From IMG/VR virus record IMGVR_UViG_3300045988_082043: a stretch of 52,840 bases of DNA, one strand, 5' to 3'. This DNA is from a virus. Numbering within the stretch: position 1 is the first letter of the stretch; the number at the start of each line of letters is the position of its first letter. A program made the translations under genes and the position numbers. Shown in pieces: positions 7,263 to 23,488 of this stretch. Under the pieces are notes generated by a model, which was given only the letters and a program-made list of their open reading frames with translations, was not told the origin of the DNA and searched no databases.

Positions 7263-7277
7263 CGGCGCTCTGAGCGC

Positions 7278-7334: not shown

Positions 7335-8411
7335 ATGAGCAGCGAAAAAGGACGGAGATTTTCCCATCTGCGGTGGAAGGACCGGCTGAAAATTGAAAGA
7401 ATGTTGAAGGAAGGCCACAAGGTAAAGGAGATCGCGGCGGCGCTGCACGTGGACAGCACCACCATCTACCGGGAGATCAAGCGCGGGAAGACGGTCCAGC
7501 GCACAACGGAGCTGATCGACCGGGAAATCTACTGCCCGGATGTGGCGGAGAACAAGTACCGGGCCAACCTCGCGGCCAAGGGTCCGGCGCTGAAACTGGG
7601 CAACGACTACAAGCTGGCGGCATACATCGAGCAGAAGATCGTGGAGGAACGGTATTCGCCGGAGGCGGTCCTGTTGAAGATCAAGGAGGAGCGGCTGACC
7701 TTCTCCGTGACGCTCTCCAAGTGGACGCTGTATTCCTACATCACCAAGGGCGTGTTCCTGGGCGTGACGAACAAGAGCCTGCCGCGCAAGGGGAAGAAGA
7801 AAAACAAGGGGTATCGGAAGGTCCGGGCCGCGCACCTTCCACAGGGCGACAGCATCGAAGACCGCCCGGAGGAGATCGCGGAACGAGCGATGCCCGGAGA
7901 CTGGGAGATGGACACGGTGGTATCCTGCAAGAAGGACGCGGCCCGGCTCCTGGTGCTGACGGAGCGGATGTTCCGCCAAGAGATCATCATAAAAATGCCG
8001 GACGGCACTACTCAGAGCGTCGTCCGGTCGCTGGACAGGCTGGAAAGGAAGCTGGGGTCGCGGCTGTTCCGTCGGATATTCCGCACGATCACCGTGGACA
8101 ATGGCAGCGAGTTCGCAGACTGCGAGGGCATGGAGCGGTCATGCCTGACAAAGCGGGCGCGGACGCACATATACTATTGCCATCCGTACAGCGCCTTCGA
8201 GCGCGGGAGCAACGAGAACGCGAACAGCCTTATCCGGCGGTGGCTCCCGAAGGGGACGAAGCTCTCCGAGGTATCACAGGCGGAGATCAAGCAAATCCAA
8301 ATCTGGATGAACAACTACCCAAGGATGGTTTTAGGCGGGCGCTGTGCGAACACGGCGCTGGCCGAGTGGATGGCGGCGGAGGGCGTGCTGCTCCCGTTCG
8401 TTCATATTTAA
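7335..8411 (+). CDS. IS30-family DDE transposase
   Basis: 358 aa. N-terminal HTH (LKIERMLKEGHKVKEIAAALHVDSTTIYREIKRG), then catalytic region WEMDTV...ITVDNGSEF...YYCHPYSAFERGSNENANSLIRRWLPKG, a typical IS30 DD(E) pattern. Confidence 0.9.
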   Translation: MSSEKGRRFSHLRWKDRLKIERMLKEGHKVKEIAAALHVDSTTIYREIKRGKTVQRTTELIDREIYCPDVAENKYRANLAAKGPALKLGNDYKLAAYIEQKIVEERYSPEAVLLKIKEERLTFSVTLSKWTLYSYITKGVFLGVTNKSLPRKGKKKNKGYRKVRAAHLPQGDSIEDRPEEIAERAMPGDWEMDTVVSCKKDAARLLVLTERMFRQEIIIKMPDGTTQSVVRSLDRLERKLGSRLFRRIFRTITVDNGSEFADCEGMERSCLTKRARTHIYYCHPYSAFERGSNENANSLIRRWLPKGTKLSEVSQAEIKQIQIWMNNYPRMVLGGRCANTALAEWMAAEGVLLPFVHI

Positions 8412-8565: not shown

Positions 8566-8594
8566 TTGACTTTTTCTTGGTCCCATAGTAAATT
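8566..8594 (+). promoter_or_regulatory. sigma70-like promoter for the rightward early operon
   Basis: TTGACT (8566-8571), 17 nt, TAAATT (8589-8594), in an AT-rich patch upstream of 8679. Confidence 0.4.
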
Positions 8595-8595
8595 A

Positions 8596-8638
8596 AATGC
8601 AGAAAAAAGTTTAACGCTTTTTTCTGCATTATTTTTTT
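8596..8638 (+). terminator. AT-rich rho-independent terminator
   Basis: Perfect 14-bp stem aatgcagaaaaaag / cttttttctgcatt, 7-nt loop, then seven T (8632-8638). Confidence 0.7.
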
Positions 8639-8678
8639 ATCTATTTCAGGGCTTGAAATGGGAGAAACGAGGTGACGA

Positions 8679-8960
8679 ATGGTGAAGAAGCTGACGCTTG
8701 AGGACCGCAGAAAGATTGAACAGATGTGGAAGGACAACGCCTCCCCCTTAAAGATCGCCGCCGAGCTGGGTATCAGCCAGTGCACCGTGTACACGGAATT
8801 GAAGCGCGGGCAGGAGACCGACGAGCGGACCGGCGAGATGGTCCTGGACCATAACTTCCGCCCGGAGTACAAGGCCGAGCGGGGCGAAAAGACCTACCAA
8901 AGCAATCTGCGCAAGCGTGGCCGCCGTCCGAAGGCCGCGCCGAGCATGAAAGGAGCCTAA
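8679..8960 (+). CDS. stand-alone IS30-type N-terminal HTH protein (transposase DNA-binding domain only)
   Basis: 93 aa. LTLEDRRKIEQMWKDNASPLKIAAELGISQCTVYTELKRG...YKAERGEKTYQSNLRKRG aligns with residues ~10-95 of the transposase at 7335. No catalytic domain follows. Confidence 0.75.
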   Translation: MVKKLTLEDRRKIEQMWKDNASPLKIAAELGISQCTVYTELKRGQETDERTGEMVLDHNFRPEYKAERGEKTYQSNLRKRGRRPKAAPSMKGA

Positions 8961-8964
8961 AGAA

Positions 8965-9189
8965 ATGACCAACTTTGAAAAGATCACGCAGTCCCCGGAA
9001 GCGCTGGGCGAGTTTCTTTCTTCGCTCCCTATGCTGGAAGGACCGTGGGACGAGGAGTTCCAGAGAAATTATTGCGCTGGATGCGGGCGCGTGAATTGCG
9101 ATGCCGGAAGGGGCTGCCCCTACAAGAAACAGCGGAACAGCCCGGCATGGTGGCTGAGATTGGAGGCGAAGACGGATGCGGGCCAGTAA
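8965..9189 (+). CDS. hypothetical Cys-rich protein
   Basis: 74-aa ORF containing CAGCGRVNCDAGRGCPYKK. Confidence 0.5.
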   Translation: MTNFEKITQSPEALGEFLSSLPMLEGPWDEEFQRNYCAGCGRVNCDAGRGCPYKKQRNSPAWWLRLEAKTDAGQ

Positions 9190-9772
9190 AGCGGACAAGT
9201 TCTATATGGGTATGCTGCTGGCGATCATCTGCTTCTGCTTCGGCCTGCTCCGCATCATGGACGAGGCAGACGCCAGCCGGGCGGCGGAGCGGGAGACGCT
9301 GATCATCGTCGAGCCGCCGACCATTGTGGCCCCAGCCTCCCAGCCGGTCCAGACGGTCTACTTCGAGCCGGACCCGGAGCCGGAGGAACCGGCAGCGGAG
9401 GTGTTCGCGTTCAGAGAGGACGTGCCCCTGAGTGCGGAACTGCAGGAAGTCTTGTGGGACGCCTGCCAGGAACACAAGGTCGAGTACGCGCTGGCCCTGG
9501 GCCTCATTGAAACGGAGAGCAGCTTCAACCCGGAGGCGGTGAGCTGTGTCGGCTGCTACGGCCTGATGCAGCTCAATCCCGACTACTTCCCCGCCGACCT
9601 ATCACCGGCGGAGAACATTCAGCACGGCGTGGCTTTCATCGCTGAAAAGCTGGACCAGTACGCCGGGAACGTCGGCGCGGCCCTGACGGCCTACAACGCC
9701 GGGCACGACACGGGGAACCGCGAGTATGCCGAGAAGGTCATGGCAGCGGCGGAAAGGTGGAGAACAGAATGA
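9176..9772 (+). CDS. membrane-anchored lytic transglycosylase (SLT domain)
   Basis: N-terminal TM (GMLLAIICFCFGLL), then LGLIETESSFNPEAV...GLMQL...TAYNAG, the SLT catalytic motifs. Confidence 0.85.
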   Translation: MRASKADKFYMGMLLAIICFCFGLLRIMDEADASRAAERETLIIVEPPTIVAPASQPVQTVYFEPDPEPEEPAAEVFAFREDVPLSAELQEVLWDACQEHKVEYALALGLIETESSFNPEAVSCVGCYGLMQLNPDYFPADLSPAENIQHGVAFIAEKLDQYAGNVGAALTAYNAGHDTGNREYAEKVMAAAERWRTE

Positions 9773-11208
9773 AACTGCTGATCGGCGGAAGCCCGTGCAC
9801 CCATTGGAGCATCGCACAGACCAAGAACCGCGAGACCGAGGCCAGCGGCATCGGCTGGGAGCTGTTCCTGAATTACCGCATCGCCCGCGATAAGTACCAG
9901 CCGGACTACTTCCTCTACGAGAATAACAAATCCATGTCTCCCGCCATCCGGGCGCAGATCACGGCGGAGCTGGGCGTGGAACCCGTGCTTATCAATTCCG
10001 CGCTGGTGAGCGCGCAGAACCGCCAGCGGCTCTACTGGGCCGGAAAGCGTAACCACGACGGTACATACAGGCAAGTGCCGGTCGAGCTGCCGGAGGACCG
10101 AGGCATCCTGCTCCGGGATATTTTGGAGACCGGCTTCCCGTTGCGCGAGAAAGGCTATGCGCTTCAAACAGGACATGGCGCTACGGCGGAAGACGCTATT
10201 GCACGCAGGCAACGGAACGCCGTGGCAGAGCCTGTTGCCATTAAGCCGCTGACTGAAAAAGAGATGGAATACATGGTGCGCGAGACCAAGGACGGGCGCA
10301 ATCATTTCGGCTTCGATTATTTCCACGACGCCACCAAGGATAAGAGCGCCTGCGTGACAGCGAACACGCACAAGGGCGTCCCCTATAACGTATTGGCGGA
10401 GCCGGTGCGCATCGGCACCATCGAGAATGACGCGAGGAACCAGGACCATGACAGCCAGCAGTACCGCGTCTATTCGCCGGACGGAAAGAGCGTGACACTC
10501 TGCGGAAATGGCGGAGGGCTGGGAGCCAAGACGGGCCTTTATGCAACGCCAATCACTCCTCCCATGCAGGTGAACGAGGCAACAAAGCTGGGATACACAG
10601 TCATTCAGCCGGGCGAGTGTGTGGACCTTGCCATGCCGCAGAGCAAGACGCGGCGGGGCCGGGCCATGAAGGACAAGACCAACTGCCTGACGACCTCGTG
10701 CGAGTTCTACGAATACTGCGGCACAATCGACGCGCCGATCTATCAGGTGCGCGGTGGGATGATCACAGTCAAAGGACAAGAGTACCCTATCAAGCTGAGG
10801 GACGGCTGCTACATCATCCGCAAACTGACGGTCCGCGAGTGTATGCGCCTCCAAACGGTGCCGGAGACCTATGCTTTCCCCGTAAGCCCCAGTCAAGCCT
10901 ACAAGATGCTGGGCAACGGCTGGACCGTAGATGTGATCGCGCACATCATGGGCCACTTTGAGGGGCTGACGGCGGAGCCGGTGGAGGTCCTGTCTATGTA
11001 CGATGGCATGAGCTGTGGGCATATCGCCTTGGGAAAGCTGGGCGCAGAGATCGCCAGCTACCACGCAACAGAGATCGACAAGTTCGCCATTCAGACAACG
11101 CAGGCGAACTTCCCTGATGTGGTGCAGCTCGGAGACGCCTTTCAGGTCCGGGAAGATGGCTGGACCTATGCAGGACTTACCGGCGGGGCCTCGGAGGCGG
11201 CGGAATGA
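9769..11208 (+). CDS. DNA cytosine-5 methyltransferase with circularly permuted motif order
   Basis: Motif IV LLIGGSPC at the extreme N-terminus, then FLYENN (VI), SAQNRQRLYW (VIII), a long TRD, RKLTVRECMRLQTVP (IX), LGNGWTV (X). Only after these come motifs I-III (VLSMYDGMSCGHIALGKLG...ATEIDKFAIQTTQANFPDVVQLGD) at the C-terminus. ATG 9769 overlaps the upstream stop. Confidence 0.85.
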   Translation: MKLLIGGSPCTHWSIAQTKNRETEASGIGWELFLNYRIARDKYQPDYFLYENNKSMSPAIRAQITAELGVEPVLINSALVSAQNRQRLYWAGKRNHDGTYRQVPVELPEDRGILLRDILETGFPLREKGYALQTGHGATAEDAIARRQRNAVAEPVAIKPLTEKEMEYMVRETKDGRNHFGFDYFHDATKDKSACVTANTHKGVPYNVLAEPVRIGTIENDARNQDHDSQQYRVYSPDGKSVTLCGNGGGLGAKTGLYATPITPPMQVNEATKLGYTVIQPGECVDLAMPQSKTRRGRAMKDKTNCLTTSCEFYEYCGTIDAPIYQVRGGMITVKGQEYPIKLRDGCYIIRKLTVRECMRLQTVPETYAFPVSPSQAYKMLGNGWTVDVIAHIMGHFEGLTAEPVEVLSMYDGMSCGHIALGKLGAEIASYHATEIDKFAIQTTQANFPDVVQLGDAFQVREDGWTYAGLTGGASEAAE

Positions 11209-11396
11209 AGCGCACTGTGAAGGCGGACTACTCCCGCACGTGCGAGGGCTGCCGTTTCCTCATAACGGAGCCGTGGCTGAAAGATGTTCAATCCTTCCGC
11301 TGCGGCGCAGATGGACGATGCAAGGGGTACATCGTCGGTATCGAGCGGCTTTTGCCGTATATTCCGGCCTGGTGTCCTGAGCTAAAGGAGAATTAA
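11205..11396 (+). CDS. hypothetical Cys-rich protein
   Basis: 63 aa, ATGA-coupled to the MTase stop. Confidence 0.5.
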   Translation: MKRTVKADYSRTCEGCRFLITEPWLKDVQSFRCGADGRCKGYIVGIERLLPYIPAWCPELKEN

Positions 11397-11399
11397 AGG

Positions 11400-11567
11400 A
11401 TGAAATATGCTGTGATCGTTACTTATACCACCGGAGAGAAGACCGGCGCGACCGTGACGGCGAGCGGGTGCGCTGCCGCCTGGGACAAGGTTTTTGAAGT
11501 GTTCGATAAGGCCGATGTGCGCGGCGTGGAGCTGGCCGCGATCTTGACGCCGGAGAGGAGAAAGTGA
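11400..11567 (+). CDS. hypothetical small protein
   Basis: 55-aa ORF below the track cutoff (MKYAVIVTYTTGEKTGATVTASG...). AGGAG lies 9 nt upstream and the stop overlaps the next start (GTGATGA). Confidence 0.45.
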   Translation: MKYAVIVTYTTGEKTGATVTASGCAAAWDKVFEVFDKADVRGVELAAILTPERRK

Positions 11568-12391
11568 TGAACGTCGTTTCTTTCGGCGGCGGGACCAACA
11601 GCACCGCCATGATCATCGGAATGTACCTGCACAAAATCCCGATAGACCTGATCTTATTCGCCGACACCGGCGGAGAACAGCCGCACACGTATGAGTTCAT
11701 CGAGACCTTCAACGGATGGCTGGAAAAGCATGGGCTTCCGCAGATCACCTCCGTGCAGTATCACGACAAGGACGGCAACCGCCTGACGCTGGAACAGGAG
11801 TGCATCAACAGCGGGACGCTGCCCTCCATCGCCTACGGCTTCAAGCGCTGCTCCCTCAAGCACAAGATCGGGACGCAGGAGAAGTTCTGCAACAACTATC
11901 AACCGTGCAAAGAGGTGTGGGCCAGCGGCCAGCGCGTCCAAAAATACATCGGCTACGATGCCGGGGAGACGCGGCGCATCCAACACGCCGCACCAATCGA
12001 CGAAGCGGACAAAAAGTACGAAAAACATTATCCGCTCTATGAATGGGGATGGACACGCGAGGAGTGCGTGCGCGTGATCGAGCGGGCCGGGCTGCCGAAG
12101 CCGGGAAAAAGCTCGTGTTTCTTCTGCCCTTCCATGAAAAAGAAGGAGATACAAGCCTTGTGGGAGAATTACCCGGACCTGTTTCAGCGCGCAATCGCGC
12201 TTGAACACGGCTCGGTTGCGAGGAATGTAAACGTCAAAGGGCTGGGTCGCAACTGGTCCTGGGAGAGCTACTACAACGAGTTCGTGGAGAACAAAGCGTT
12301 TGAAGACGCGCAGATCACCTTCGATGAATTATTCCCGGACAGTCCCGGCGGATGCCTCTGCGGCGCTCCATGCGGGTGCTACGACGGATAA
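11567..12391 (+). CDS. PAPS-reductase-like / PP-loop ATP pyrophosphatase family protein
   Basis: N-terminal VVSFGGGTNSTAMIIGM (SGGxDS-like PP-loop). About 275 aa with a C-terminal Cys cluster (CFFCP...CLCGAPCGC). Confidence 0.7.
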   Translation: MNVVSFGGGTNSTAMIIGMYLHKIPIDLILFADTGGEQPHTYEFIETFNGWLEKHGLPQITSVQYHDKDGNRLTLEQECINSGTLPSIAYGFKRCSLKHKIGTQEKFCNNYQPCKEVWASGQRVQKYIGYDAGETRRIQHAAPIDEADKKYEKHYPLYEWGWTREECVRVIERAGLPKPGKSSCFFCPSMKKKEIQALWENYPDLFQRAIALEHGSVARNVNVKGLGRNWSWESYYNEFVENKAFEDAQITFDELFPDSPGGCLCGAPCGCYDG

Positions 12392-12401
12392 GGAGGAGCG
12401 C

Positions 12402-12821
12402 ATGGCGATCAAGAATTATACCTCCGGGGTGGATGTGTTCACCAGCCTGGGAGAGATACAGGGCGCGCTCGCCGGGCACGGCGCGCGTCAGATCATGGTG
12501 GAATACGACGAAAAGGGACGCCCGACGGGCGTGACCTTCTCCATTGATACGCCAACTGGGCGGCGGGGCTTCATGCTCCCGGCCAACATCGACGGCGTTT
12601 TGTTCGTATTCAAGCAGCAGAAGCTCAAGGACGACCGCGACCAGGCCGAGCGCACGGGCTGGCGCAACCTGCGGGACTGGGTGCTGGCACAAATGGCGAT
12701 TATCGAGGCTGGGATGGCGAGCGTGGACGAGGTTTTCCTGCCGTATCTGACCGACGGACACGGGAACACGCTGTACACTCTGTATTCCAGCGGAACGCTG
12801 AGACTGGGGGATGGAACATGA
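12402..12821 (+). CDS. hypothetical protein
   Basis: ATG 12402 after AGGAGGAG; 139 aa. Confidence 0.6.
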   Translation: MAIKNYTSGVDVFTSLGEIQGALAGHGARQIMVEYDEKGRPTGVTFSIDTPTGRRGFMLPANIDGVLFVFKQQKLKDDRDQAERTGWRNLRDWVLAQMAIIEAGMASVDEVFLPYLTDGHGNTLYTLYSSGTLRLGDGT

Positions 12822-13393
12822 AAAAGGCTGTGCTTATCAGCATCAGGCCGCAGTGGTGCGCAAAAATTGCGAGCGGTGAGAAAACGATAGAGTTCCGCAA
12901 GAGCAGGCCAGAGCTGAAAAAACCATTCAAATGCTATATCTACTGCACGAAAGCAGATTACTACACTTGGGATTTGCGGGTCTCCAACGTAACGATACCG
13001 TTTGCAGAGAAGTGCTGCGGCAAGGTTATTGGAGAGTTTATCTGCTCCGACTTTGTGCTGTTTAACGGTGGTAAGAAATGGCCGGATTTTAGAGAGAACC
13101 GGGCACAAGCGGAAGCCGCCACGCCGGAAGTCCTCAAAAAGGCTTGCTTGACGGCAAAGGAGCTGTGGGCCTACGAGCCAAAAGGAAACCCTATCGGCTG
13201 GTGCATCTCCGACCTGGTAATCTACGACACGCCGCATGAGCTAAACAGCTTCCGCCGTGTGTGCCCGGAAGAACTGGACTGTGAAAGCTGCGCTATGCAC
13301 AGCGAAAACACCGGGCGCTGCGGGAACGAGGCGCTATACCTGCGCCGCGCCCCGCAGAGCTGGTGCTATGTGGAGGAACGCCATGACTTATGA
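12818..13393 (+). CDS. ASCH-domain protein
   Basis: KAVLISIRPQWCAKIASGEKTIEFRKSRP is typical of an ASCH N-terminus. 191 aa. Confidence 0.65.
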   Translation: MKKAVLISIRPQWCAKIASGEKTIEFRKSRPELKKPFKCYIYCTKADYYTWDLRVSNVTIPFAEKCCGKVIGEFICSDFVLFNGGKKWPDFRENRAQAEAATPEVLKKACLTAKELWAYEPKGNPIGWCISDLVIYDTPHELNSFRRVCPEELDCESCAMHSENTGRCGNEALYLRRAPQSWCYVEERHDL

Positions 13394-14483
13394 ACGAGCT
13401 GCTGAGATTTTGGACCCGGAGCACCGGGAGACATACGAGAGCCTTGAGATCGTGAACGAGGCTTGCCGGATGGGCCGGGCGGCTCTGTTCCGGCGGATGC
13501 CGGAGCCGCCGCACCCGGACGGGGATGAAAGCATCCTGGCCTGCCAGACCTGCGGGAGCGGCGAATATCTCTACAACGAGGACGGGAACCGCTGCTGTTT
13601 CTGCGGCTGGTGCGGACAGGCCATCGACTGGAACGCGGAGACATTCAAGGCGGCAGGCCAGATGAAGCCCGTGCTGAAATATCCGGGGAGCAAATGGCGG
13701 CTGGCGGAATGGATCGTATCCCTCATGCCGCCGCACAAGAGCTATCTGGAACCGTTCTTCGGGAGCGGGGCCGTATTCTTCAAAAAGCCACCGAGCCGTA
13801 TCGAGACCATCAACGACCTGGACGGCGAGATCATCAACCTGTTCCGCTGTATCCGGGAACAGCCGGAGGAGCTGATGCGGGCCGTGGCCTGCACGCCGTA
13901 CAGCCGGGGCGAGTATGAACAGGCGTGGGACCATTTCAAGGCGGGAGGACAGGTCCGACCGGACGGCATCGAAGCCGCCCGGCTGACGCTGGTACGCTAC
14001 TGGCAGGCCCACGGGAGCACCGTTGTTTACAAGGGCGGTTGGAAAAATGACCGCGCCGGGCGGGAGTACGCCTACGATGTGCGCTACTGGCGGCAGCTCC
14101 CGGAGCGTATTGCCGCCGTGGTGGAACGCCTGAAAGATGCGCAAATCGAGCAGGCACCGGCGGTCGATGTGATCAGGCGCTTCTGTCACCCGGACGTGCT
14201 GATCTACGCGGACCCGCCTTATATGCTGCATACGCGCAAGGGCAAGCAATACATCGTGGAGATGGCGGAGGAGGCCCAGCACATCGAGCTTCTGGACGCA
14301 TTGAAGGAGCATCCGGGGCCGGTCATTTTGTCCGGCTATGACAACGACCTGTACAACGAACACCTGCAGGGGTGGAAAAAGCTGCACCGGCGGGCGCAGG
14401 TGGAAGGCGGCGCGGCAAGAACGGAAACGGTGTGGCTGAATTACGTACCGGAAACGGGAGGAAAAGTGTATGAAACTGTGTGA
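13383..14483 (+). CDS. DNA N6-adenine methyltransferase (Dam/D12 class) with an N-terminal Zn-ribbon extension
   Basis: KPVLKYPGSKWRLAEWIVSLMP..YLEPFFGSGAVFF...NDLDGEIINLFR...IYADPPYM (DPPY). The first ~95 aa carry CQTCGSG...CCFCGWCG. The start could also be the internal Met near 13665. Confidence 0.85.
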   Translation: MTYERAAEILDPEHRETYESLEIVNEACRMGRAALFRRMPEPPHPDGDESILACQTCGSGEYLYNEDGNRCCFCGWCGQAIDWNAETFKAAGQMKPVLKYPGSKWRLAEWIVSLMPPHKSYLEPFFGSGAVFFKKPPSRIETINDLDGEIINLFRCIREQPEELMRAVACTPYSRGEYEQAWDHFKAGGQVRPDGIEAARLTLVRYWQAHGSTVVYKGGWKNDRAGREYAYDVRYWRQLPERIAAVVERLKDAQIEQAPAVDVIRRFCHPDVLIYADPPYMLHTRKGKQYIVEMAEEAQHIELLDALKEHPGPVILSGYDNDLYNEHLQGWKKLHRRAQVEGGAARTETVWLNYVPETGGKVYETV

Positions 14484-14733
14484 TAGGTGCCGGGTATCCG
14501 GCTGCCTGCTGACCTACGGCGGGAAAGCCTGTCGGGAGGCCAGAAAGCAGGAGTGCCCGGACGTGGTGTTCACCCGTGCGGACAAGATCAGGGAGATGGA
14601 CGACGAGGAGCTGGCCGTAGTCGTTATGTGCCCGCACGACGGGGACGAGGACGGCTGTAAGGGGTCGCCGGATGCACAGACGTGCATCAAGTGCTGTCTG
14701 GAATGGCTCCGGGAACCGGCGGAGGTGCTGTGA
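14470..14733 (+). CDS. hypothetical Cys-rich protein
   Basis: 87-aa ORF overlapping the neighbouring genes at both ends. Confidence 0.5.
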   Translation: MKLCDRCRVSGCLLTYGGKACREARKQECPDVVFTRADKIREMDDEELAVVVMCPHDGDEDGCKGSPDAQTCIKCCLEWLREPAEVL

Positions 14734-15089
14734 TGGACGAGAAAGTGACCTATTCATGCGTGGACCAAGAGCACAACACCTGGAACTGCCGGGGATGCGG
14801 GTACATCGAGACCTTCGAGGCGGACGGGCCGGTGGAAAACGGCTGGAACTTCTGCCCTGGCTGCGGCCATGAGATCGAGGTGGAAGCGGTCAGCCCGTGT
14901 CCCTTCGACAACGGGAACTGTATGTGCCAGTTTTGCGAGGCTCAGTGCAACAACGGTCTGAACTGCTCGGACTGCCGCTGCGAGGGAAAACCTGTGCACG
15001 ACATCCACCTCTGCACGGGCTTCGTCGGAGACATCACCCAGTACATTCGGAACTGGATGCGCCATCACGGCGGGAAGGCTGATACCTGA
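14733..15089 (+). CDS. hypothetical zinc-ribbon protein
   Basis: ATG 14733 overlaps the upstream TGA. Contains CRGCG...CPGCG plus a further Cys-rich stretch. Confidence 0.55.
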   Translation: MDEKVTYSCVDQEHNTWNCRGCGYIETFEADGPVENGWNFCPGCGHEIEVEAVSPCPFDNGNCMCQFCEAQCNNGLNCSDCRCEGKPVHDIHLCTGFVGDITQYIRNWMRHHGGKADT

Positions 15090-15135
15090 GCGCGTGAGCG
15101 GCACGTACCTATATAAATTAAAGGAGGACAAGCAC

Positions 15136-16023
15136 ATGAGCGAATTGACGCTGCGATTTGGGGAGGCCCGGCTGCACGTGGAGGGCGACGCCGATCTGGT
15201 GGCGCGCGAGCGAGCGGCGTTCCTGGAACACCTGGGCCGACTGGACCGCCAGAGCGAGAAGGCCGGTGAACTGCTGGCCGTGCTGCTCCGGGCCGGGCGC
15301 GCCCCCGAAAAGGCCGAGGAGCCTGTGAGCAAGAAGGCAGAGCCGGAGGAACCGGCGGAGGAAAAGAGTGCGACGCAGGACGACTTATGCAGGCTGCGGA
15401 GCATCCACGTCGGCTTCGTCAGCCCGTCCCAGTTGAAGCGGGCGAAGGCCGAGGGCAAGCTGGACCACCTGCTCGCCCAGCGCGACGAGATCGAGGTGCC
15501 GCTGGATACCGGCGGGACCGTCACCGTGGTCTGCTGCTACGTGACGCCCACTTCGGCCCGCTTCGTCTTCAAAGACTGCTGGGACGAGGGCGTGATGAAC
15601 GACGAGGCGACCAACAAGACCGGGTATTTCAAGAGCAAGGGCCGTCAGCACGTTTTGGAGGACATCTATCCGCACATCGCGGCGGAATGGCGGGAGATCA
15701 TCGTACCCAGGACCTTCGTGGAGACCATCGAGGGCGAGCGGGTGGAGTATTCGGACCCGCTGTGGCTGCCTTCGGCGACGGACGTGTTCGGCACGCCGGA
15801 CGGGGCCTGGTGGAACGACGGAGACGACGACTTCCAGCTCCCGGTTTTCACCTGTGAGCGCGACCGTGTGAAGGAGTGCGGCGACAAAGGAACGTATTTC
15901 TGGTGGCTCCGCTCCGTGTATGCGAGCTACACGACCGACTTCTGCAGTGTGTACACGGACGGGTCTGCGGACACCTCCAGCGCCTACTTTTCGATTGGCT
16001 TCGCGCCGGGCTTTGACATCTGA
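15136..16023 (+). CDS. second DGR target: non-structural protein with C-terminal DUF6273/CLec-like variable domain
   Basis: AAGGAGG lies 8 nt before ATG 15136. 295 aa. The C-terminus ...DPLWLPSATDVFG...TYFWWLRSVYASYTTDFCSVYTDGSADTSSAYFSIGFAPGFDI is homologous to the tail-fibre C-terminus. No signal peptide or TM was seen by eye. Confidence 0.85.
   Translation: MSELTLRFGEARLHVEGDADLVARERAAFLEHLGRLDRQSEKAGELLAVLLRAGRAPEKAEEPVSKKAEPEEPAEEKSATQDDLCRLRSIHVGFVSPSQLKRAKAEGKLDHLLAQRDEIEVPLDTGGTVTVVCCYVTPTSARFVFKDCWDEGVMNDEATNKTGYFKSKGRQHVLEDIYPHIAAEWREIIVPRTFVETIEGERVEYSDPLWLPSATDVFGTPDGAWWNDGDDDFQLPVFTCERDRVKECGDKGTYFWWLRSVYASYTTDFCSVYTDGSADTSSAYFSIGFAPGFDI
15898..16012 (+). repeat. DGR variable repeat VR2 (remote, ~15 kb from the TR)
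   Basis: Colinear with TR 890-1004 (offset 15008). This span has 17 differences and an 18th (TR1007 -> VR2 16015) lies just 3' of it. All 18 are at TR adenines. Same GC-rich 3' block and the same A->C at TR1003 as VR1. Confidence 0.9.
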
Positions 16024-16039
16024 TCGGAAATCGAAAAAA

Positions 16040-16063
16040 TCTCCGGTGCGTAAGCGCCGGAGA
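16040..16063 (+). promoter_or_regulatory. hairpin with GTAA tetraloop just downstream of VR2
   Basis: tctccggtgc-gtaa-gcgccggaga: 10-bp stem (one G.T), starting 17 nt after the stop. Same type and position as the hairpin after VR1. Confidence 0.6.
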
Positions 16064-16078
16064 GCAAAGGAGACAGCC

Positions 16079-16444
16079 ATGGTCACATTCGATATTTGCA
16101 AAGGCAATCCGGGCGCGCTGACGTTCGTGATGCTGGCCTATGAGTACAATCCGTATCGCGCCGAGGCAGCGTTCCGGCGTATGCAGAACAACGGCATCAC
16201 CGGGGACAAGCTGTATATGCTCTGGAATGACTGCTGCGACCGTGATGTGGAGCAGGCATTGGTCAACATGGAGTGCATGAGCATGGAGGAGATCGTGTCC
16301 CACATCAACTACGAAGGCGGACGGGGCATCCCCATTCCGAAGAAAGAAAATCTGTGGTGGCTCCGCTCGCCGTATCCGAGCCAGATGGGCGGTGAGCAGA
16401 TCGACGAGACCGGGCGCATCACAAGAAATCCATATCTGTTCTAA
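16079..16444 (+). CDS. hypothetical protein with a truncated WWLRSP (DUF6273-like) motif
   Basis: 121 aa, ATG 16079 after AAAGGAG. Carries ...KKENLWWLRSPYPSQMGG.... Nt 16355-16368 (tggtggctccgctc) match the TR/VR 5' segment exactly. Confidence 0.6.
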   Translation: MVTFDICKGNPGALTFVMLAYEYNPYRAEAAFRRMQNNGITGDKLYMLWNDCCDRDVEQALVNMECMSMEEIVSHINYEGGRGIPIPKKENLWWLRSPYPSQMGGEQIDETGRITRNPYLF

Positions 16445-16450
16445 AAAACA

Positions 16451-16494
16451 TTCTCCCCCGGCGCTCGCTGTGGGAAGCGAAAACCGGGGGAGAA
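16451..16494 (+). terminator. stem-loop after 16079..16444 (terminator or origin-type hairpin)
   Basis: 11-bp stem ttctcccccgg / ccgggggagaa with a 22-nt loop. No clear T-run. Lies upstream of the Rep-like gene. Confidence 0.4.
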
Positions 16495-16704
16495 ATCTTC
16501 AAGATTTTGCTGTGCGTGGGGTCATTTCCTACTACATATTGTACCACAATGCACGGATAAAGTCAAGATAGCGGCCTCGACGCGGGATGCAGAGAGGCGC
16601 GCCGCAACGCCGCCGGGAGGCGGCGGACGGGCTTGTAATGGGTATTATCCTTCTTGCGAAAAGCATCGAGGAAGGACCCGGAGACGATGCAAAGGGGTAC
16701 ACGG

Positions 16705-17544
16705 ATGATAAACAGGTCTTTCATACGAGAAAAGGTCGTCCACTGTGGGAAGAACTTCCTTTCACCGGAAATCTATCCGTATAGCGGGCAACAGCAGCAG
16801 GCGGTCGGACGAAAGCGCGGGAAGAAGGTCAATGTCTCCGCTCCGAAGCAGAAGAACCTCAATGATCGGAGAGCCAAGCGCTATTTCATCCAGCTTGCCA
16901 ACGGTAACTTCGGTGTGGGCGATCTGGTGGTCCATCTGACCTACGCCCCGGAGTTTCTGCCGGAGAGCGAGGAGGAGGCCGCGAAGATCGTCGCCAAGTA
17001 TCTGCGCCGGGTAGCATACCTGCGGAAGAAGCGGGGCCTGCCCCCTCTCAAGTATCTGCTTGTGACGCAAATCGGACGGAAGAAGGACGGGACCCACCGC
17101 ATCCACCATCACGTTCTGATGAACGGCGGACTGGACCGCGACGAGGTGGAAAACCTGTGGTGGGAGACCAAGGGCACAAAGGACCGGGAGCCGGTCATGT
17201 ACGGATGGGCAAACGCCGACCGCCTGAGACCGAACGCGAAGGGCATCGCCAGCATGGCCGGGTACATGGTCCAGGACAGCGCCGGGAAAAAGCACTGGAC
17301 GCAATCGCAAAATCTGGAAAAGCCGTGGCACCGGGCACCGAACGACCGGAAGTACACGCGCCACCAGTTGGACAAGATCGCCAAGCTGCCGGAGGACAGC
17401 GAGGAGTTCGTGCGTTTTTGGGAAAAGCAGTATCGCGGCTGGGAGCTGGTGGAGTGCGAGAAGTCGTTCAACGAGCAAACAGGATGGTATTTCTACCTGA
17501 CCATGCGGCGAGCGCATAGAAAACAGAACGGAGGGCTGAAATGA
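16705..17544 (+). CDS. HUH-type rolling-circle replication initiator-like protein
   Basis: Rep-like motif order: LVVHLTYAPEF (motif 1), THRIHHHVLMNG (HUH), IASMAGYMVQD (Tyr motif). Alternative starts at ATG 16687 and TTG 16654. Confidence 0.5.
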   Translation: MINRSFIREKVVHCGKNFLSPEIYPYSGQQQQAVGRKRGKKVNVSAPKQKNLNDRRAKRYFIQLANGNFGVGDLVVHLTYAPEFLPESEEEAAKIVAKYLRRVAYLRKKRGLPPLKYLLVTQIGRKKDGTHRIHHHVLMNGGLDRDEVENLWWETKGTKDREPVMYGWANADRLRPNAKGIASMAGYMVQDSAGKKHWTQSQNLEKPWHRAPNDRKYTRHQLDKIAKLPEDSEEFVRFWEKQYRGWELVECEKSFNEQTGWYFYLTMRRAHRKQNGGLK

Positions 17545-18092
17545 CAGGAGAAGAACAGTTCAAAGAGCTTTACCGGCGGTATATCCACCGGGAGGGCGCG
17601 GAGGAGCTTTTGGAATGGATGGAGCGGGAGACGGACTTTTTCACCGCGCCAGCCAGCACGAAGCATCACCTGGCCTACCCCGGCGGACTGGTGGAGCACA
17701 GCGTCAACGTGTTCCGGGAGCTGCGGAAGGTCGTGATCGACAACGAGCCGACGATGGAGGCTGTCGCCATCTGTGCGCTACTCCATGACCTGTGCAAGGC
17801 GAATACATACGTGCGGGAGCATCACGCGGGACCGGGCGAGGTCTATTCCTACGTGAAAAAGGACAGCTTCCCCATGGGACACGGGGAGAAGTCTGCCTAC
17901 CTGATCGCGCGGTTTATGAAGCTGGAAGACGAGGAGGCCCTGGCTATCCGCTGGCACATGGGCGCGTGGGACGATGCTGTGCGCGGCGGGAGCCGTGGCC
18001 TGAATGAGGCGATGAAGCTGCACCGCATCGTGTACGAGCTGCACGCGGCGGATATGCGGGCCACGCATATCGTGGAGGCTGGTATGGCATGA
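17541..18092 (+). CDS. HD-domain phosphohydrolase
   Basis: KHHLAYPGGLVEHSVNV...ALLHDLCK...GHGEKS: His...HD metal-binding pattern. Confidence 0.8.
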   Translation: MTGEEQFKELYRRYIHREGAEELLEWMERETDFFTAPASTKHHLAYPGGLVEHSVNVFRELRKVVIDNEPTMEAVAICALLHDLCKANTYVREHHAGPGEVYSYVKKDSFPMGHGEKSAYLIARFMKLEDEEALAIRWHMGAWDDAVRGGSRGLNEAMKLHRIVYELHAADMRATHIVEAGMA

Positions 18093-18664
18093 AGGGACGA
18101 CGCGGAGCGCTGGGCCAGTACCACGCCAGCATGAGCAACAACCGGGGCCATGATTTCGAGGAGGCCATCCGTCAGGCGTGCCTTCTGTACGCGAGCCAGG
18201 GCCGGGCGAAGGTGGAGAAGACGCCGGAGCCGTTCCGGGTGCTGGAAAAGCGGGAGGGCGGCATTTTCGTGGGCCGCTTCACCGCGCACGCCCAGCCGGA
18301 CTTTCAAGGCACGCTGGACGGCGGGCGAAGCATCATCTTTGAGGCGAAGTATACCACCACGGACGCCATGAAGCGGGACGTGCTGACGGAGACACAGATG
18401 GAGACCTTGGAACGGCACCACCGCTGCGGCGCGCTGGCGGCGGTGTGCGTGGGCATCCAGGACCGCTTTTTCTTCGTGCCGTGGCCGGTGTGGCGGGACA
18501 TGAAGGAAGCCTTTGGGCACATGAGCGTTTCGGCGGCGGAGCTGGAAGACTTCCGCGTACGCTTCACCGGGGCGGTCCTGTTCCTGGACTATGTACACAA
18601 GATCGGGGGCCGGTGGATAACCGGGGCCGACTGTGAAATCGAACGATGGAGAAGGAGTAAATAA
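18089..18664 (+). CDS. recU: RecU-like Holliday junction resolvase
   Basis: GHDFEEAI...LYASQGRAKVEKTPEPFRV...QPDFQGTLDGGRSIIFEAKYT matches the RecU core pattern (..fE..i..Y...a.i.K.PtP...DY.G...G..i.FEAK.T). Confidence 0.7.
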   Translation: MKGRRGALGQYHASMSNNRGHDFEEAIRQACLLYASQGRAKVEKTPEPFRVLEKREGGIFVGRFTAHAQPDFQGTLDGGRSIIFEAKYTTTDAMKRDVLTETQMETLERHHRCGALAAVCVGIQDRFFFVPWPVWRDMKEAFGHMSVSAAELEDFRVRFTGAVLFLDYVHKIGGRWITGADCEIERWRRSK

Positions 18665-18665
18665 C

Positions 18666-18911
18666 ATGAGCATTATGGAGATCATCTTTGCGAACTTCTG
18701 GACCTGGGCGGGCACGGTCGTCCTGGTGGCGACGCTGCTGGACGGCCTGGCGAACGTGATCGCGGCCATGCGCAAGCCGGAGCGCTCCGTGCGCCGGACC
18801 AGCTATTCCGACGGCACCAGCATCGTGCAGATCGACAACGCCACGGCGGCGGATGTGGACCGGGCCGTGCGCGCCATCAACGGAGCGGAAAGCGGGAGGA
18901 CTGGCCGATGA
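18666..18911 (+). CDS. small membrane protein
   Basis: 81 aa with an N-terminal TM (FWTWAGTVVLVATLLDGLANVIA). Confidence 0.5.
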   Translation: MSIMEIIFANFWTWAGTVVLVATLLDGLANVIAAMRKPERSVRRTSYSDGTSIVQIDNATAADVDRAVRAINGAESGRTGR

Positions 18912-19537
18912 AGCTGAAAAAGGTCGCGGCGCTGTGCAACAGCGCAAATGCGTTCTGCCTGTTCGACCGTGTGGACGGCGACGGAGTTGTGACACAGTGG
19001 CTTGGGGACGGGTGCTGCGCCTTTCCTCTCCACGGCCTGCCGGTGCTGTCGGAACCGGAGCTTTACCGGATGTTCGACGTATCGGAGAAGAAGCAGGACA
19101 AGATATATTTCAATCACAGTGCGCTGCCGGAGGGCCTGAACGTGGAGGACTGGTGCCGCTCTGAGGTCCGCGCGGAGGATATGGACGTGACGATCTCCTC
19201 CGGCGGGAAGGTGCTGATGCCGCTGCGCTTCCCCGGCGGGCTGCTGTTCATCCAGAGCAAGTACCTTGGGCCGCTGGAAGATCAGATGGATTTTCTGGAA
19301 CTCTACGTGCGCCGGTCGGACAGCGGCGGGCGTTACGTGGTGGCAAAGACGGGTATGCTGGTCGCGGGCGTGATCTTCCCGGTGCAGGCCGTGAACGAGG
19401 GCTTTTGCGACAAGCTGGAAGAACTGGCGTCGCTGACGCGGCGGGAGCTGGACAGGCATTTGTCCGCGCCGCCGGTGGCTGAGGAGGAAGACAAGGACCA
19501 GGAGAACGTCTTCGGAGGCAGCGATGGGGAAACGTAA
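18908..19537 (+). CDS. hypothetical protein
   Basis: 209-aa ORF, ATGA-coupled to the upstream gene. Confidence 0.6.
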   Translation: MKLKKVAALCNSANAFCLFDRVDGDGVVTQWLGDGCCAFPLHGLPVLSEPELYRMFDVSEKKQDKIYFNHSALPEGLNVEDWCRSEVRAEDMDVTISSGGKVLMPLRFPGGLLFIQSKYLGPLEDQMDFLELYVRRSDSGGRYVVAKTGMLVAGVIFPVQAVNEGFCDKLEELASLTRRELDRHLSAPPVAEEEDKDQENVFGGSDGET

Positions 19538-19703
19538 GCGGCCCATGCCGTCCTTCTACGGAAAGAACATCGCCCAGCACGCCCAGCGGCGATTTTTGGC
19601 CCGGTGGGAAGCAGAGCACCGGAAGAAAAGCGACCGTATCCTGATCGCGGATGAACTGGATAAAGCGCCGGACCGCACACAGGAGGCCCGGCGGGAGGAA
19701 TAA
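19524..19703 (+). CDS. hypothetical small basic protein
   Basis: 59-aa ORF below the track cutoff (MGKRKRPMPSFYGKNIAQHAQRRFLARWEAEHRKK...), overlapping the upstream gene. Confidence 0.4.
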   Translation: MGKRKRPMPSFYGKNIAQHAQRRFLARWEAEHRKKSDRILIADELDKAPDRTQEARREE

Positions 19704-19725
19704 GCAACAGAAACGAGGCTGACAG

Positions 19726-20211
19726 ATGCGCGAGAAAAACGTGAAAGAGATCGTCCGGTATTACTACGAGATACCGGAGATGGTGCGCCTGCTCAAGACG
19801 GAGCAGCGGGAGCGGGAGAGCTTGTACGACACGTTGAAGGGAACCGGCGGCGACGGGATGCCCGGAGGCGGAGGCCCTGGGAAGCCGGTGGAGGCCGCCG
19901 TGATACGGCTGGACGAGCGAGGCGTGTATGAGCGCCTGCAGGAGATACACGTGCGGCTACTGGTTTTGGAGGGCGACGCCGCTGCCGTGCGGGGCTGTTT
20001 GGATGGCCTTTCCGGTAAGTACAGAAGCATCCTTCAACTGCGGCACAAATGTCACCATAGCTGGGCGAATATCTCGGTACGCATGGGCGCGCCGGACAGC
20101 ACCGTGCGGAGCTGGCACGACAAAGCTGTTTTGTGCCTGGGCGAAGCGCTGGACGAGGTGCCCATGGCGGAGGAGCTTTTGGAGCGTGCTTCACGCGCGC
20201 GTACATATTAA
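19726..20211 (+). CDS. sigma-70 region-4-like / ArpU-RinA-type late transcription regulator
   Basis: 161 aa, the last gene of the rightward operon. The C-terminus KYRSILQLRHKCHHSWANISVRMGAPDSTVRSWHDKAVLCLGEAL resembles a sigma region-4 HTH. Confidence 0.5.
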   Translation: MREKNVKEIVRYYYEIPEMVRLLKTEQRERESLYDTLKGTGGDGMPGGGGPGKPVEAAVIRLDERGVYERLQEIHVRLLVLEGDAAAVRGCLDGLSGKYRSILQLRHKCHHSWANISVRMGAPDSTVRSWHDKAVLCLGEALDEVPMAEELLERASRARTY

Positions 20212-20395
20212 GCGCCGAAAAAATCGAGGGCTGGCGGGAGCTGCTTTTTCACCTGACTTTTGGTGAGGGCGGCGGCCCGGCGGCTGTGGGACGAGCTGTT
20301 TCAATTTCCTGTGTTTTTCTGTCAGTGAAATCGCGTGCGCAAAGACTGTTTCCGGCGGGAACGAATGGCCCGTGGGAAAACAATTTGCGAATGGC

Positions 20396-20452
20396 ATAAA
20401 AAGCACCCCGGCGGGCTGTTGGTCGCAGCCTGTCGGGGTGGCGTTCGTTTTA
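20396..20452. terminator. bidirectional terminator between the convergent rightward and leftward operons
   Basis: 15-bp stem caccccggcgggctg / cagcctgtcggggtg (20404-20440). It has two G.T pairs on the + strand, which become C.A mismatches on the - strand. Flanked by a run of A upstream (T-run for the - strand) and ttcgtttta downstream. Confidence 0.6.
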
Positions 20453-21501: not shown

Positions 21502-21548
21502 TTTGTGCTCCTTCTGCCCTCGTGACCTCCGGGGCGGGATTTGGTTTG

Positions 21549-22517
21549 TTATTCGGTAAGGCCCAGGGCGCGGCGGGCGGCGGCTTCGGCGTTGGGGGTA
21601 AGCTGGCGCTGCCATGCGCTGTACTGGGGGGACCAGCGGAAGCCGTTTTGTTTCAGAGCGGCGCGGGTGTCCTCGTCGGGCTTTTCGTCAAAGAGGATTT
21701 GGAGACGGTCCGCTTCCAGGTTGCGGACGATCTCGCCGCCGGGGAACTTTGTACTGTCGGCGGGCTGTTCGGCCTGCTGGGCGCGCTTGTCCAGCTCGTT
21801 GAGGCGGGCCTGGACCCGCTTGATCTTGCCGCGAAGGCTGGTCAATTCGTAGTCGGGGACGGGAGACTTGACCCAGGGGCAGCGTTCCTTCGTGTCGGCA
21901 AAGCTGGCGGTGAGCTTGGCGGCGGCCTCGGCGGTCAGGCCGGGGAAGCCGTCGAAGGATTTGTGCTTGCGGTAGAAGGCGTTCAGGGCCTTGCTTTCGT
22001 CGAGCTTGTTTTGGAGCTTTTGGAGCTGGTCGGCGAGTATTTCGCGGGCGTGAGGGTCGGCCAGATCGACCGGGCCGGAGCCGACGGCCTCGATCTTGGT
22101 CAAGATGGCCTTGATCTCGTCGTACTCGTTCCAGAGGGTGCCTTCACGGGACATCTGCTTTTCGTGCTTGCGCATATTGTAGCCGCCTGCGCCGGAAATG
22201 AACTGGCTGGGATAGCTGGCCTGGTTGCGGTTGTAGTCGTTGGTCCACTCAGCAAGGCGGCGGGCGTAGCAGTCAAGAAGCGTGTCGAGCTTGTCGTGGT
22301 AGAAGGGGCTGACGCGGGCCTTTTTGGCATCCACCAGGGCGGCGGCCTTGTCTACGGCGCGGCGGTATTCCGCCGTTGCGCTGCCGGGCTTGTAGTCGCT
22401 CATGTGGACGCAGTAGTGAGCGTTGCGGGCCGTCTCCTCGTTGATCTCGTAGTAGCGGGCGGCGGGCGCGGGCGCTTCGGCGGTCTGCGGGCCGATCATG
22501 CTTGTTTGTTCGTACAT
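21549..22517 (-). CDS. DUF3560-like protein
   Basis: 322 aa. The C-terminus RLQILFDEKPDEDTRAALKQNGFRWSPQYSAWQRQLT matches, from memory, the DUF3560 C-terminal module common in conjugative-element leading regions. Confidence 0.6.
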   Translation of the reverse strand: MYEQTSMIGPQTAEAPAPAARYYEINEETARNAHYCVHMSDYKPGSATAEYRRAVDKAAALVDAKKARVSPFYHDKLDTLLDCYARRLAEWTNDYNRNQASYPSQFISGAGGYNMRKHEKQMSREGTLWNEYDEIKAILTKIEAVGSGPVDLADPHAREILADQLQKLQNKLDESKALNAFYRKHKSFDGFPGLTAEAAAKLTASFADTKERCPWVKSPVPDYELTSLRGKIKRVQARLNELDKRAQQAEQPADSTKFPGGEIVRNLEADRLQILFDEKPDEDTRAALKQNGFRWSPQYSAWQRQLTPNAEAAARRALGLTE

Positions 22518-22611
22518 TTTGTGTACCTCCGTTTTGTGTTTTGGGGTTTCGCTTATGGGGTCGGGTCGCTTTGTTGTCCGGTGCGGCCCGCGAAGGTGTC
22601 CGGCGGCGGGG
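22518..22611 (-). repeat. intergenic repeat module R1 (structured core + CA-rich leader/RBS)
   Basis: Fills the whole gap between two genes. The 57-nt core 22555-22611 is identical to 23527-23583. The leader reads ...CCCCAAAACACAAAACGGAGGTACACAAAATG on the coding strand. Confidence 0.8.
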
Positions 22612-23094
22612 TCAGATCGTGCCCCATGGGGCGGCGTTGTAGTCGGCGGTGTTGGAAACGAGGAAATGTGTGTAGACGCGGGAGAAGTCGATCAGGGCCA
22701 GGAGCAGCGGGTCTTTTCTGGTGGCGTCCTCGCTGGCCTGGTATATCTCGCAGTCGATCAGCTTGGCGAGCTTGTAGTGCCAGGGCAACAGCTTTTCGTG
22801 CTGGTCCTCGCGCTCCCGCTCCTGTACCAGCGGGAGAACGCTGGGCATCTCCGGCGGCGTGGTGTCGGCATCGGTTTTGTAGCGCCCGGCATAGGCGCGG
22901 CTGTTCAGGTCGTACAGGCGGCGGAAGATCAGGCCGGAGCAGTAGAAGCCGTAGCGGTCGCGGCAGTCGCTCAGGGCCTTGTAAAGGCTGTCGGGAGCGT
23001 CGAAGCCGAAGCGATTGAAGCCGCTGTTGAGGATGTATTCCAGGGTGTTCGCGGTGGCGGCGTGGGCCTGGTCGGACATGATGAAGCAAGACAT
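22612..23094 (-). CDS. hypothetical protein
   Basis: 160 aa, preceded by the conserved leader CCAAAACCACAAAACGGAGGTACACAAAATG. Confidence 0.65.
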   Translation of the reverse strand: MSCFIMSDQAHAATANTLEYILNSGFNRFGFDAPDSLYKALSDCRDRYGFYCSGLIFRRLYDLNSRAYAGRYKTDADTTPPEMPSVLPLVQEREREDQHEKLLPWHYKLAKLIDCEIYQASEDATRKDPLLLALIDFSRVYTHFLVSNTADYNAAPWGTI

Positions 23095-23122: not shown

Positions 23123-23488
23123 TTAGTGGGTGGGACACTGGAACAGGACGCAAAGATCAGCCTTGCGGGCGATCTCGTTGATGCGCTGGGCGGTCGTACT
23201 GCCGAGGGAAAAGACGGCGATAAAATTCACGTGGCAGTCGTCCGGGGTGAAGATCGGCTTGCACTCGACGCCCAGGGCGCGAAGATGCGTTGTGATGTTG
23301 GCGGCCTCCGTGACCTCGTGCAGCGCGTCGGCGTAGCACTCGCGGTAAAGGTCCACGCCGTATTTGTCGCGGATGGCGTCGAGCTGGTCCACGTCGAAAA
23401 GCTCGGTGAACGGCTCGTATTTGTGCGGGGTGGACAGGTGCGCGGCGATGATCTCGTTTCTGCAAGACCAGTATCCGGCGGTTTTCAT
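23123..23488 (-). CDS. hypothetical protein
   Basis: 121 aa, preceded by repeat R2 and its leader. Confidence 0.65.
   Translation of the reverse strand: MKTAGYWSCRNEIIAAHLSTPHKYEPFTELFDVDQLDAIRDKYGVDLYRECYADALHEVTEAANITTHLRALGVECKPIFTPDDCHVNFIAVFSLGSTTAQRINEIARKADLCVLFQCPTH

Follow-up and report, generated by a model that had tools for sequence, protein, structure and literature searches.

Phage diversity-generating retroelements (DGRs) are usually explained as receptor-switching devices. Here we analysed a stretch of 52,840 nucleotides of viral DNA (IMG/VR virus record IMGVR_UViG_3300045988_082043; the window, hereafter, is this whole stretch), in which a single DGR appears to serve two genes: a fibre-like gene at the end of the tail module and, about 15 kb away, the open reading frame (ORF) 15136-16023. 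We conclude, with a probability of roughly 85%, that ORF 15136-16023 is the second target of this DGR, that it is currently diversified and that its product is most likely a hypervariable ligand-binding protein acting off the virion. An earlier note, made from the sequence alone, had proposed that one template repeat (TR) and one reverse transcriptase (RT) serve both the fibre-like gene and this remote gene of an early operon, and the sequence, the population data and the synteny in five phage lineages all bear this out. In at least five lineages of gut Clostridia phages, a second target occupies a constant position amid anti-restriction and replication genes, and it has more than 10,000 natural variants per 90%-identity cluster; the same mutagenic machinery would thus serve another interaction as well.

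The repeats of the window set out the relation between the two targets. The TR, delimited by repeat comparison and BLAST, lies at 883-1009 on the plus strand and contains 13 AAY codons (9 AAC and 4 AAT). When the whole window was searched by BLAST with the TR, two further copies were found, variable repeat (VR) 1 at 92-218 and VR2 at 15900-16014; these were the only ones, and a third VR, which had been considered, was not found. In an ungapped self-comparison, VR2 (15898-16015, plus strand) aligns with TR 890-1007 and 18 of 18 mismatches fall on TR adenines; with 33 A and 85 other nucleotides in this part of the TR, the hypergeometric probability of such an all-adenine pattern is 1.3e-12. The 31 adenines of TR 890-987, read in the VR frame, are located in codon position 1 (16) or 2 (15) and never in position 3. 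This is the classic DGR design, which gives maximal amino-acid diversity without stop codons. The adenine-mutable part of VR2 (15898-15995) is followed at 15996-16015 by a G+C block and an end resembling an initiation of mutagenic homing (IMH) sequence. The 14-nt block, GGCTTCGCGCCGGG, is common to TR, VR1 and VR2, and after it the 3' ends of the VRs depart from the TR at A1003, the hallmark used to recognise an IMH, with a C in both VR1 and VR2.

VR1 has the same layout (approximately 92-218, with an adenine-mutable part at approximately 99-196 followed by the G+C block and IMH-like end) and lies in the 3' end of its target gene, at 1-227 on the plus strand. The 5' part of that gene is found at 51145-52840, also on the plus strand, and continues at 1-227 across the circular junction. 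Indeed, the window ends in an exact 99-bp terminal direct repeat (1-99 = 52742-52840) and thus represents a circular assembly of 52,741 bp; since the VR1 gene wraps round this junction, VR2 is located about 15 kb downstream of the TR. The VR1 target protein (607 aa) is rich in Ala at its N-terminus and continues with repeat domains and, at the C-terminus, a DUF6273 domain; it matches phrog_37900, and its matches to tail-fibre PHROGs are weak. VR1 shows two non-adenine mismatches to the TR, C960>T and T977>G. On all these points (the restriction of VR2 differences to adenines, the IMH-like block and A-to-C change at TR 1003 shared by both VRs, the two non-adenine mismatches of VR1) the earlier note was correct; its corollary that the last rewriting of VR2 is no older than that of VR1 deserves little weight, drawn as it was from two non-adenine mismatches in one genome.

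Judging from its relatives, VR2 is an active DGR target, diversified in nature. The window and 11 related contigs from IMG/VR or metagenome-assembled genomes (MAGs) provide 12 copies of VR2, no two of them alike, in which 224 substitutions fall at TR-adenine positions versus 5 elsewhere. Thus, neither an invariant VR2 among relatives nor a loss of the adenine bias with more homologues, two outcomes that would have spoken against the proposal, was found. Over the repeat, the TR is identical in 9 related contigs, and VR1 differs in every one. The protein itself has 677 database relatives, the closest being 87-95% identical, and the 90%-identity clusters of the closest ones hold up to 10,526, 1,558 and 916 distinct sequences. 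Among the 44 closest protein representatives, the AAY-templated codons carry 6-14 residue types each, set in a nearly invariant scaffold (WWLRSV..A.S..FC.V..DGSA....AY.S.GFAPGF). Moreover, each of 26 sampled members of two clusters has a VR of its own (26/26), with a mean of 12.0 differences per 33 VR residues versus 5.7 per 254 residues elsewhere.

Three observations on the assemblies concern the same repeats. First, the sequences of two IMG/VR contigs, L022 and L024, break off within VR2 (at 21 and 45 nt), and the 99-bp terminal overlap of the window reaches exactly to the 5' edge of VR1; such assembly breaks at VR1 and VR2 are the expected effect of hypervariable sites. Second, among the 44 closest protein clusters, 17 consist of 435-aa forms: the loss of one base in the VR has joined the target to the 121-aa ORF that follows it (16079-16444). 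In contig L099 (P0023) the deletion is at the last adenine of the stretch templated by AACAACAACAAC (window 15970-15985). The clusters of these -1 frameshift fusions have 1-23 members each versus thousands for in-frame clusters, and the fusions may stem either from rare deletions made by the RT at adenines or from misassembly of a hypervariable repeat. Third, contigs L102 and L103 (P0015, P0016 and P0018; 1.6-1.8 kb) join the body of the target to the unmutated TR and run into the spacer and the start of the RT gene; their crossover points differ and one is at 1.9x coverage. Assembly may have produced them as chimeras; alternatively, they are real VR2 x TR recombinants, from which the 15 kb separating the direct repeats would have been excised or deleted.

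The elements predicted to carry out this diversification form, by sequence, an apparently complete DGR cassette (0.4-2.6 kb, plus strand, PHROG and Pfam matches). Downstream of the VR1 gene, it consists, in this order, of an Avd-like ORF, the TR, an RT-2 RNA spacer and the RT gene. The putative Avd-like accessory gene (387-854, plus strand, 155 aa) occupies the canonical position between target gene and TR; it matches phrog_30516 (1.6e-9), its sole named match is a weak one to phrog_3206, 'Avd protein of DGR' (E = 0.002), and no Pfam match was obtained. The RT gene (1322-2572, plus strand, 416 aa), which starts 313 nt downstream of the TR, matches RVT_1 (Pfam) and phrog_1423 (3.7e-72) and encodes the DGR hallmark motifs LGSEVSQ at residue 219 and YMDD at residue 251. 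In the spacer of about 300 nt between TR and RT, the RT-2 RNA motif (Rfam RF03077) was matched over its full length at 1017-1317 on the plus strand (91.9 bits versus a gathering score of 40). This sequence match links the orphan RT-2 motif to the DGR TR-spacer RNA of this phage group.

The 3' ends of the VRs carry further candidate cis elements. The position opposite TR 1003 is invariant in 12 of 12 VR2 and in 11 of 11 VR1 copies, and that opposite TR 1007 in 12 of 12 VR2 copies, which places the 3' homing boundary inside the G+C block. A GC-rich hairpin with a GNRA loop follows VR1 (255-276, plus strand, 9 bp stem, GCAA loop), and another is found 25 nt past VR2 (16040-16063, plus strand, 10 bp stem, GTAA loop); when the three repeats were compared, no such hairpin was found after the TR. 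GAAA-loop hairpins also stand behind both VRs of Dulem virus 34, a phage discussed below. The case for the hairpins is made by the local stems, the fold z-scores of the whole hairpin segments being not significant. By analogy, the hairpin at 16040-16063 is a candidate target-recognition hairpin. It was rejected as an intrinsic terminator, as it has no T-run and was not called by the terminator scan.

By analogy to Bordetella phage BPP-1, we propose that the TR (883-1009) is transcribed together with the RT-2 spacer and that the RT/Avd complex would copy it into cDNA, misincorporating opposite adenines. The cDNA would then replace either VR1, in the fibre-like gene at the tail end, or VR2, 15 kb away, and the two would be rewritten independently. 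Homing would be guided by the shared G+C block and the IMH-like end and probably helped by the GNRA-loop hairpin, present after each VR and absent after the TR.

The second target gene (15136-16023, plus strand) encodes a protein of 295 aa with an isoelectric point of 4.7; its ATG is preceded 8 nt upstream by AAAGGAGG. The protein consists of an orphan N-terminus of about 55 aa, a Pro/Glu-rich linker and a DUF6273 domain, and belongs by its match to phrog_21980. The DUF6273 match (PF19789, 7.3e-13; 49.2 bits versus a cut-off of 23.5) covers residues 148-286, and the VR forms the C-terminal end of the domain. As had been judged by eye, the target has no signal-like N-terminus and no hydrophobic segment, the Kyte-Doolittle maximum over 19 residues being 1.16. 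An exhaustive phmmer search of 1.8 billion representatives with the N-terminal 119 aa yielded relatives only within the same family, plus fragments, and hence no clue to function, a PADLOC scan of the target and its small neighbours gave no matches, and a search of PDB sequences with the family profile returned nothing relevant.

The full-length AlphaFold model (64 homologues) was poor (pLDDT 59.7); it had no meaningful PDB matches, and a BFVD search with it retrieved only other DUF6273 proteins with low TM-scores. It was replaced by a domain-only model of residues 83-295, built from 142 diverse homologues (pLDDT 78.9, pTM 0.80), in which the VR is predicted to form lower-confidence beta-strands. 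The sole significant PDB match of this model is 9qa6, an IgA peptidase of Thomasclavelia ramosa (E = 2.5e-4, TM 0.57). This enzyme has at its N-terminus the one DUF6273 domain with a solved structure (PMC12402451), and the model agrees with it in fold. Canonical C-type lectins (CD23, CD94) were matched weakly. Assignment of the target domain to the C-type-lectin-like (C-lec) class draws its support from the literature and is putative here.

The gene is located far from the structural genes, as first proposed. It belongs to an early operon for replication and DNA modification (8566-20440, plus strand), defined by PHROG, Pfam and PADLOC matches, skew and a terminator scan, whereas the structural module (terminase, portal, capsid, sheath, tape measure and baseplate/tail genes, by PHROG and Pfam) spans 28.7-52.8 kb, its VR1 gene wrapping round to 227. 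The operon starts with genes for a helix-turn-helix (HTH) protein, an SLT transglycosylase, a C5 methyltransferase, a PAPS-reductase/SspD-like protein and a D12 N6-adenine methyltransferase, followed by two small ORFs. The VR2 target comes next, and then the 121-aa ORF (16079-16444, plus strand, conserved downstream of the target and without Pfam, PHROG or PADLOC match), Rep (phrog_3584), HD, RecU and a sigma/antiterminator-like gene. The 3' end of the operon is marked by a strong terminator with a 16-bp stem (20404-20440). Beyond it, the AT skew is negative across 20-26 kb, showing that this block is transcribed from the minus strand; the plus-strand ORFs 21522-23018 and 23364-25370, which lie in this negative skew and have no PHROG matches, were rejected as genes. 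All together, operon position, terminator and skew embed the target in a replication and DNA-modification operon, far from the head and tail genes.

This position is conserved. The synteny methyltransferase, small ORFs, target and Rep-HD-RecU is kept in four related contigs (L001-L004), including contigs 60% and 78% identical to the window. A tblastn search of GenBank phages with the target found Dulem virus 34 only, a lemur gut phage whose gene (35648-36313; 45% identity) lies after an adenine methyltransferase and before Rep, with 15 of 16 VR mismatches at TR adenines. Four further phages have a comparable small target: FP_Toutatis gp24 (11505-12152), between methyltransferases and the replication initiator (13 of 14 mismatches at adenines); Lelie orf58, in the early region about 16 kb from the TR (15 of 17); orf43 of Roseburia phage Shimadzu, after a methyltransferase and before Erf/SSB/Rep (15 of 15); and nd12 tgt2, 14 kb from the TR (13 of 13). 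All five small targets are DUF6273 proteins and belong to PHROGs 21980 and 9958, which have no assigned function. The synteny survey suggested at the outset thus places a small DUF6273 target among replication and modification genes in five phage lineages.

The closest parallels differ in instructive ways. Like the window, Toutatisvirus has a single Avd-TR-RT cassette at the end of the tail module with a large DUF6273 target adjoining it, and a small DUF6273 target of 215 aa some 16-17.5 kb away, between methyltransferases and the replication initiator. However, the small target of Toutatis belongs to PHROG 9958 and that of the window to PHROG 21980, and similarity between the two can be detected in the VR only (hhalign probability 80%). 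Behind the Toutatis VR come some 38 more residues, whereas that of the window ends the protein, and the host is Faecalibacterium instead of an Oscillibacter-like bacterium. The Shimadzu orf43 and Dulem 34 products are likewise small DUF6273 proteins (209-221 aa), related to the window protein through phrog_21980 or by 45% identity and encoded directly behind a DNA methyltransferase gene, ahead of recombination or Rep genes, but they lack its N-terminal extension of about 110 aa. In nd12 tgt2, the N-terminus is instead a DUF3310 (SaV-like) domain. DUF3310 is a domain of lactococcal phage SaV, an early, host-toxic protein that determines AbiV sensitivity (PMC8306868); it also occurs in PHROGs annotated as nucleotide kinases. 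Moreover, a sister lineage has a small target with an N-terminal DUF4406 domain (phrog_355, nucleoside 2-deoxyribosyltransferase; E = 5e-26). The DUF4406-fused targets show VR-type variation between otherwise near-identical proteins, and their gene lies behind SLT and ahead of helicase and primase genes.

The arrangement is already described. In Toutatisvirus, the second VR gene was reported as a core gene without assigned function, 17,480 nt from the TR (Egorov et al. 2024, bioRxiv 10.1101/2024.10.15.618418), in a system with variation at both VRs (PMC11792537). 'Large and small' DUF6273 targets are on record for Lelie and CP11 (Gulyaeva et al. 2024), and Lelie orf58 is known as the 'small DGR target protein'. 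The tgt2 proteins of nd4 and nd12 were modelled as a C-lec-like domain (Baykov et al. 2023, PMC10743442); the authors counted target2 as part of the 'cassette' and proposed a Mtd-like receptor-binding role (PMC10743442). Shimadzu is another phage for which such a target is published. The survey of Roux et al. (2021) could not see remote targets (PMC8144416). For the pairing of a structural with a non-structural target by one DGR, the precedent is Quimbyvirus (Benler et al. 2021, PMC8008677), whose second target was read as a non-structural protein in phage-host conflict and contrasted with the structural targets known before (PMC8008677). There too, one VR lies beside tail fibres and the second is distal to the structural module, near DNA-modification and counter-defence genes. 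However, Quimbyvirus is a Bacteroides phage of unrelated sequence, its RT is encoded in three frames, and its second target is encoded within a defence island on the opposite strand, whereas that of the window lies in the strand and operon of the replication genes. BPP-1 differs in having a single target, the tail-fibre tip protein Mtd, adjoining the cassette; no sequence or structure match of the window target to Mtd was obtained. The earlier note thus over-rated the novelty of its find, as remote small DUF6273 targets had been published. What the window provides is a further, well-sampled case of a remote and apparently non-structural DGR target, from a gut Clostridia phage. It adds a lineage with an invariant TR and very deep protein diversity, as well as comparative pointers away from the virion, namely the conserved synteny and the fusions to nucleotide-metabolism and SaV-like domains. 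Cultivable relatives (Lelie, Toutatis and Shimadzu) make the question directly testable.

We next consider what the diversified protein does. The VR2 product is predicted to be a small, acidic, soluble DUF6273 (C-type-lectin-like) binding module without export signal, co-transcribed with methyltransferase, Rep, HD and RecU genes. We propose that it would take part in phage-host conflict, either within the infected or lysogenic cell or once lysis has released it; its time of expression, cellular location and ligand are presumptive in this proposal. The serious competitor is that the target is part of the virion although its gene lies outside the structural module, serving as a second subunit for receptor binding or decoration; the DGR would then diversify two adhesins. 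Gut-phage DGR targets usually have a DUF6273/C-lec VR domain as their adhesin module, the VR region matches a 'Hoc-like head decoration' PHROG, and a two-adhesin DGR has been proposed for Lagaffe, nd4/nd12 and Toutatisvirus. However, in five lineages the gene is found among methyltransferase, Rep and recombination genes and never in the head/tail cluster. In the window, it lies upstream of the sigma/antiterminator-like gene that closes the early operon. Moreover, the target has no trimerisation or fibre-like region, and the domains fused to its relatives, nucleoside-deoxyribosyltransferase-like and SaV-like, are not virion modules. The DUF4406 and DUF3310 fusions would thus favour an off-virion role, without proving it. 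Because the partner domains are not virion modules, the position is conserved and an export signal is absent, we consider the off-virion role somewhat the likelier of the two, at slightly better than even odds, and a second adhesin unlikely, though a contender. Gene position, lack of an export signal and the fusions in relatives thus speak for the non-virion, intracellular target of the earlier note, a location that we nevertheless infer.

Several points weigh against the off-virion reading or the mechanism behind it. The published readings of the Toutatisvirus and nd4/nd12 small targets, whose authors propose receptor binding, favour an adhesin. The N-terminal 119 aa, having no relatives outside the family, could be an unrecognised virion-docking module, the orphan N-terminus serving as docking peptide. 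SLT, often a virion enzyme, is encoded in the 'early' operon, which may therefore not be purely intracellular. Finally, the Avd assignment of 387-854 depends on a weak sequence match (E = 0.002), and the roles of the IMH-like end and of the hairpin are assumed from BPP-1.

Two other explanations concern the repeat itself. VR2 might be the relic of an old duplication of the VR1 domain or of a past homing event, no longer rewritten. Outside the VR, the two DUF6273 domains are indeed only distantly alike, so that their paralogy must be old; however, VR2 differs in every related contig and sampled cluster member, the differences keep to TR-adenine positions (224 versus 5) while flanks and TR are conserved, and L022 and L024 break inside VR2, which makes a relic very improbable. 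Least probable of all is that 15898-16015 is an assembly chimera joining unrelated sequence through the repeat, as the short low-coverage contigs of P0015, P0016 and P0018 might suggest, since the gene, with a conserved 3' flank, a hairpin and a downstream ORF of its own, recurs across dozens of independent assemblies, including 50-kb contigs of circular size and prophages in 130-kb scaffolds.

If the protein does act off the virion, a broader proposal can be made, tentatively and with the odds leaning against it: the small DUF6273 targets would form a conserved class of early, intracellular, hypervariable binders directed against host defence or takeover targets. Its members may include the window protein, those of Dulem 34, Shimadzu (orf43), Toutatis (gp24), Lelie (orf58) and nd12 (tgt2), and the DUF4406 and DUF3310 fusions. 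Such a class would amount to an 'antibody-like' repertoire of phages, diversified by a retroelement that also retargets the virion adhesin, and to a phage-side counterpart of the DGR-diversified intracellular sensors proposed in bacteria.

The surroundings of the target gave further observations. Two genes upstream of it could be DNA-modification or anti-restriction genes by sequence: 11564-12391 is PAPS-reductase-like, with a PADLOC match to SspD (4.6e-20), and the adjoining 12818-13393 matches the candidate defence family PDC-M11B (1.5e-10), the pair lying between two methyltransferase genes. A cell-wall lytic domain is kept in the early DNA-modification operon of all the phages listed here, an unusual location for such an enzyme, with a few genes between it and the small DGR target downstream; it is an SLT in some phages and a 3D domain or annotated 'cell wall hydrolase' in others (window 9176-9772; L013 32828-33745; L014 7828-8358; L096 30548-31264; L100 8421-9185).

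Between the DGR cassette and the operon, PHROG and Pfam matches place the endolysin gene (4563-5519), one gene on the minus strand (5903-6853) and an IS30-like DDE transposase gene (7260-8411; phrog_4646, 4.8e-126). The transposase gene and a related HTH gene (8679-8960) occupy the site at which relatives have serine or tyrosine integrases. Relatives of the phage occur in MAGs assigned to Oscillibacter and Oscillospiraceae, and bacterial glnA, pyrG and guaA adjoin the phage genes in a 131-kb scaffold, which indicates that the phage is temperate. In this scaffold (L003, 1-4852), the phage-bacterial boundary lies right at the HTH_38 gene, and the phage may integrate by a transposase-type enzyme. 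Finally, the minus-strand block at 20-26 kb contains a dense cluster of ribozyme-type RNAs in an accessory region, a Twister-sister ribozyme (83.8 bits) and three RAGATH-5 motifs, all intergenic, on the minus strand and above their Rfam gathering scores (22549-22603, 23521-23575, 23785-23867 and 24825-24877).

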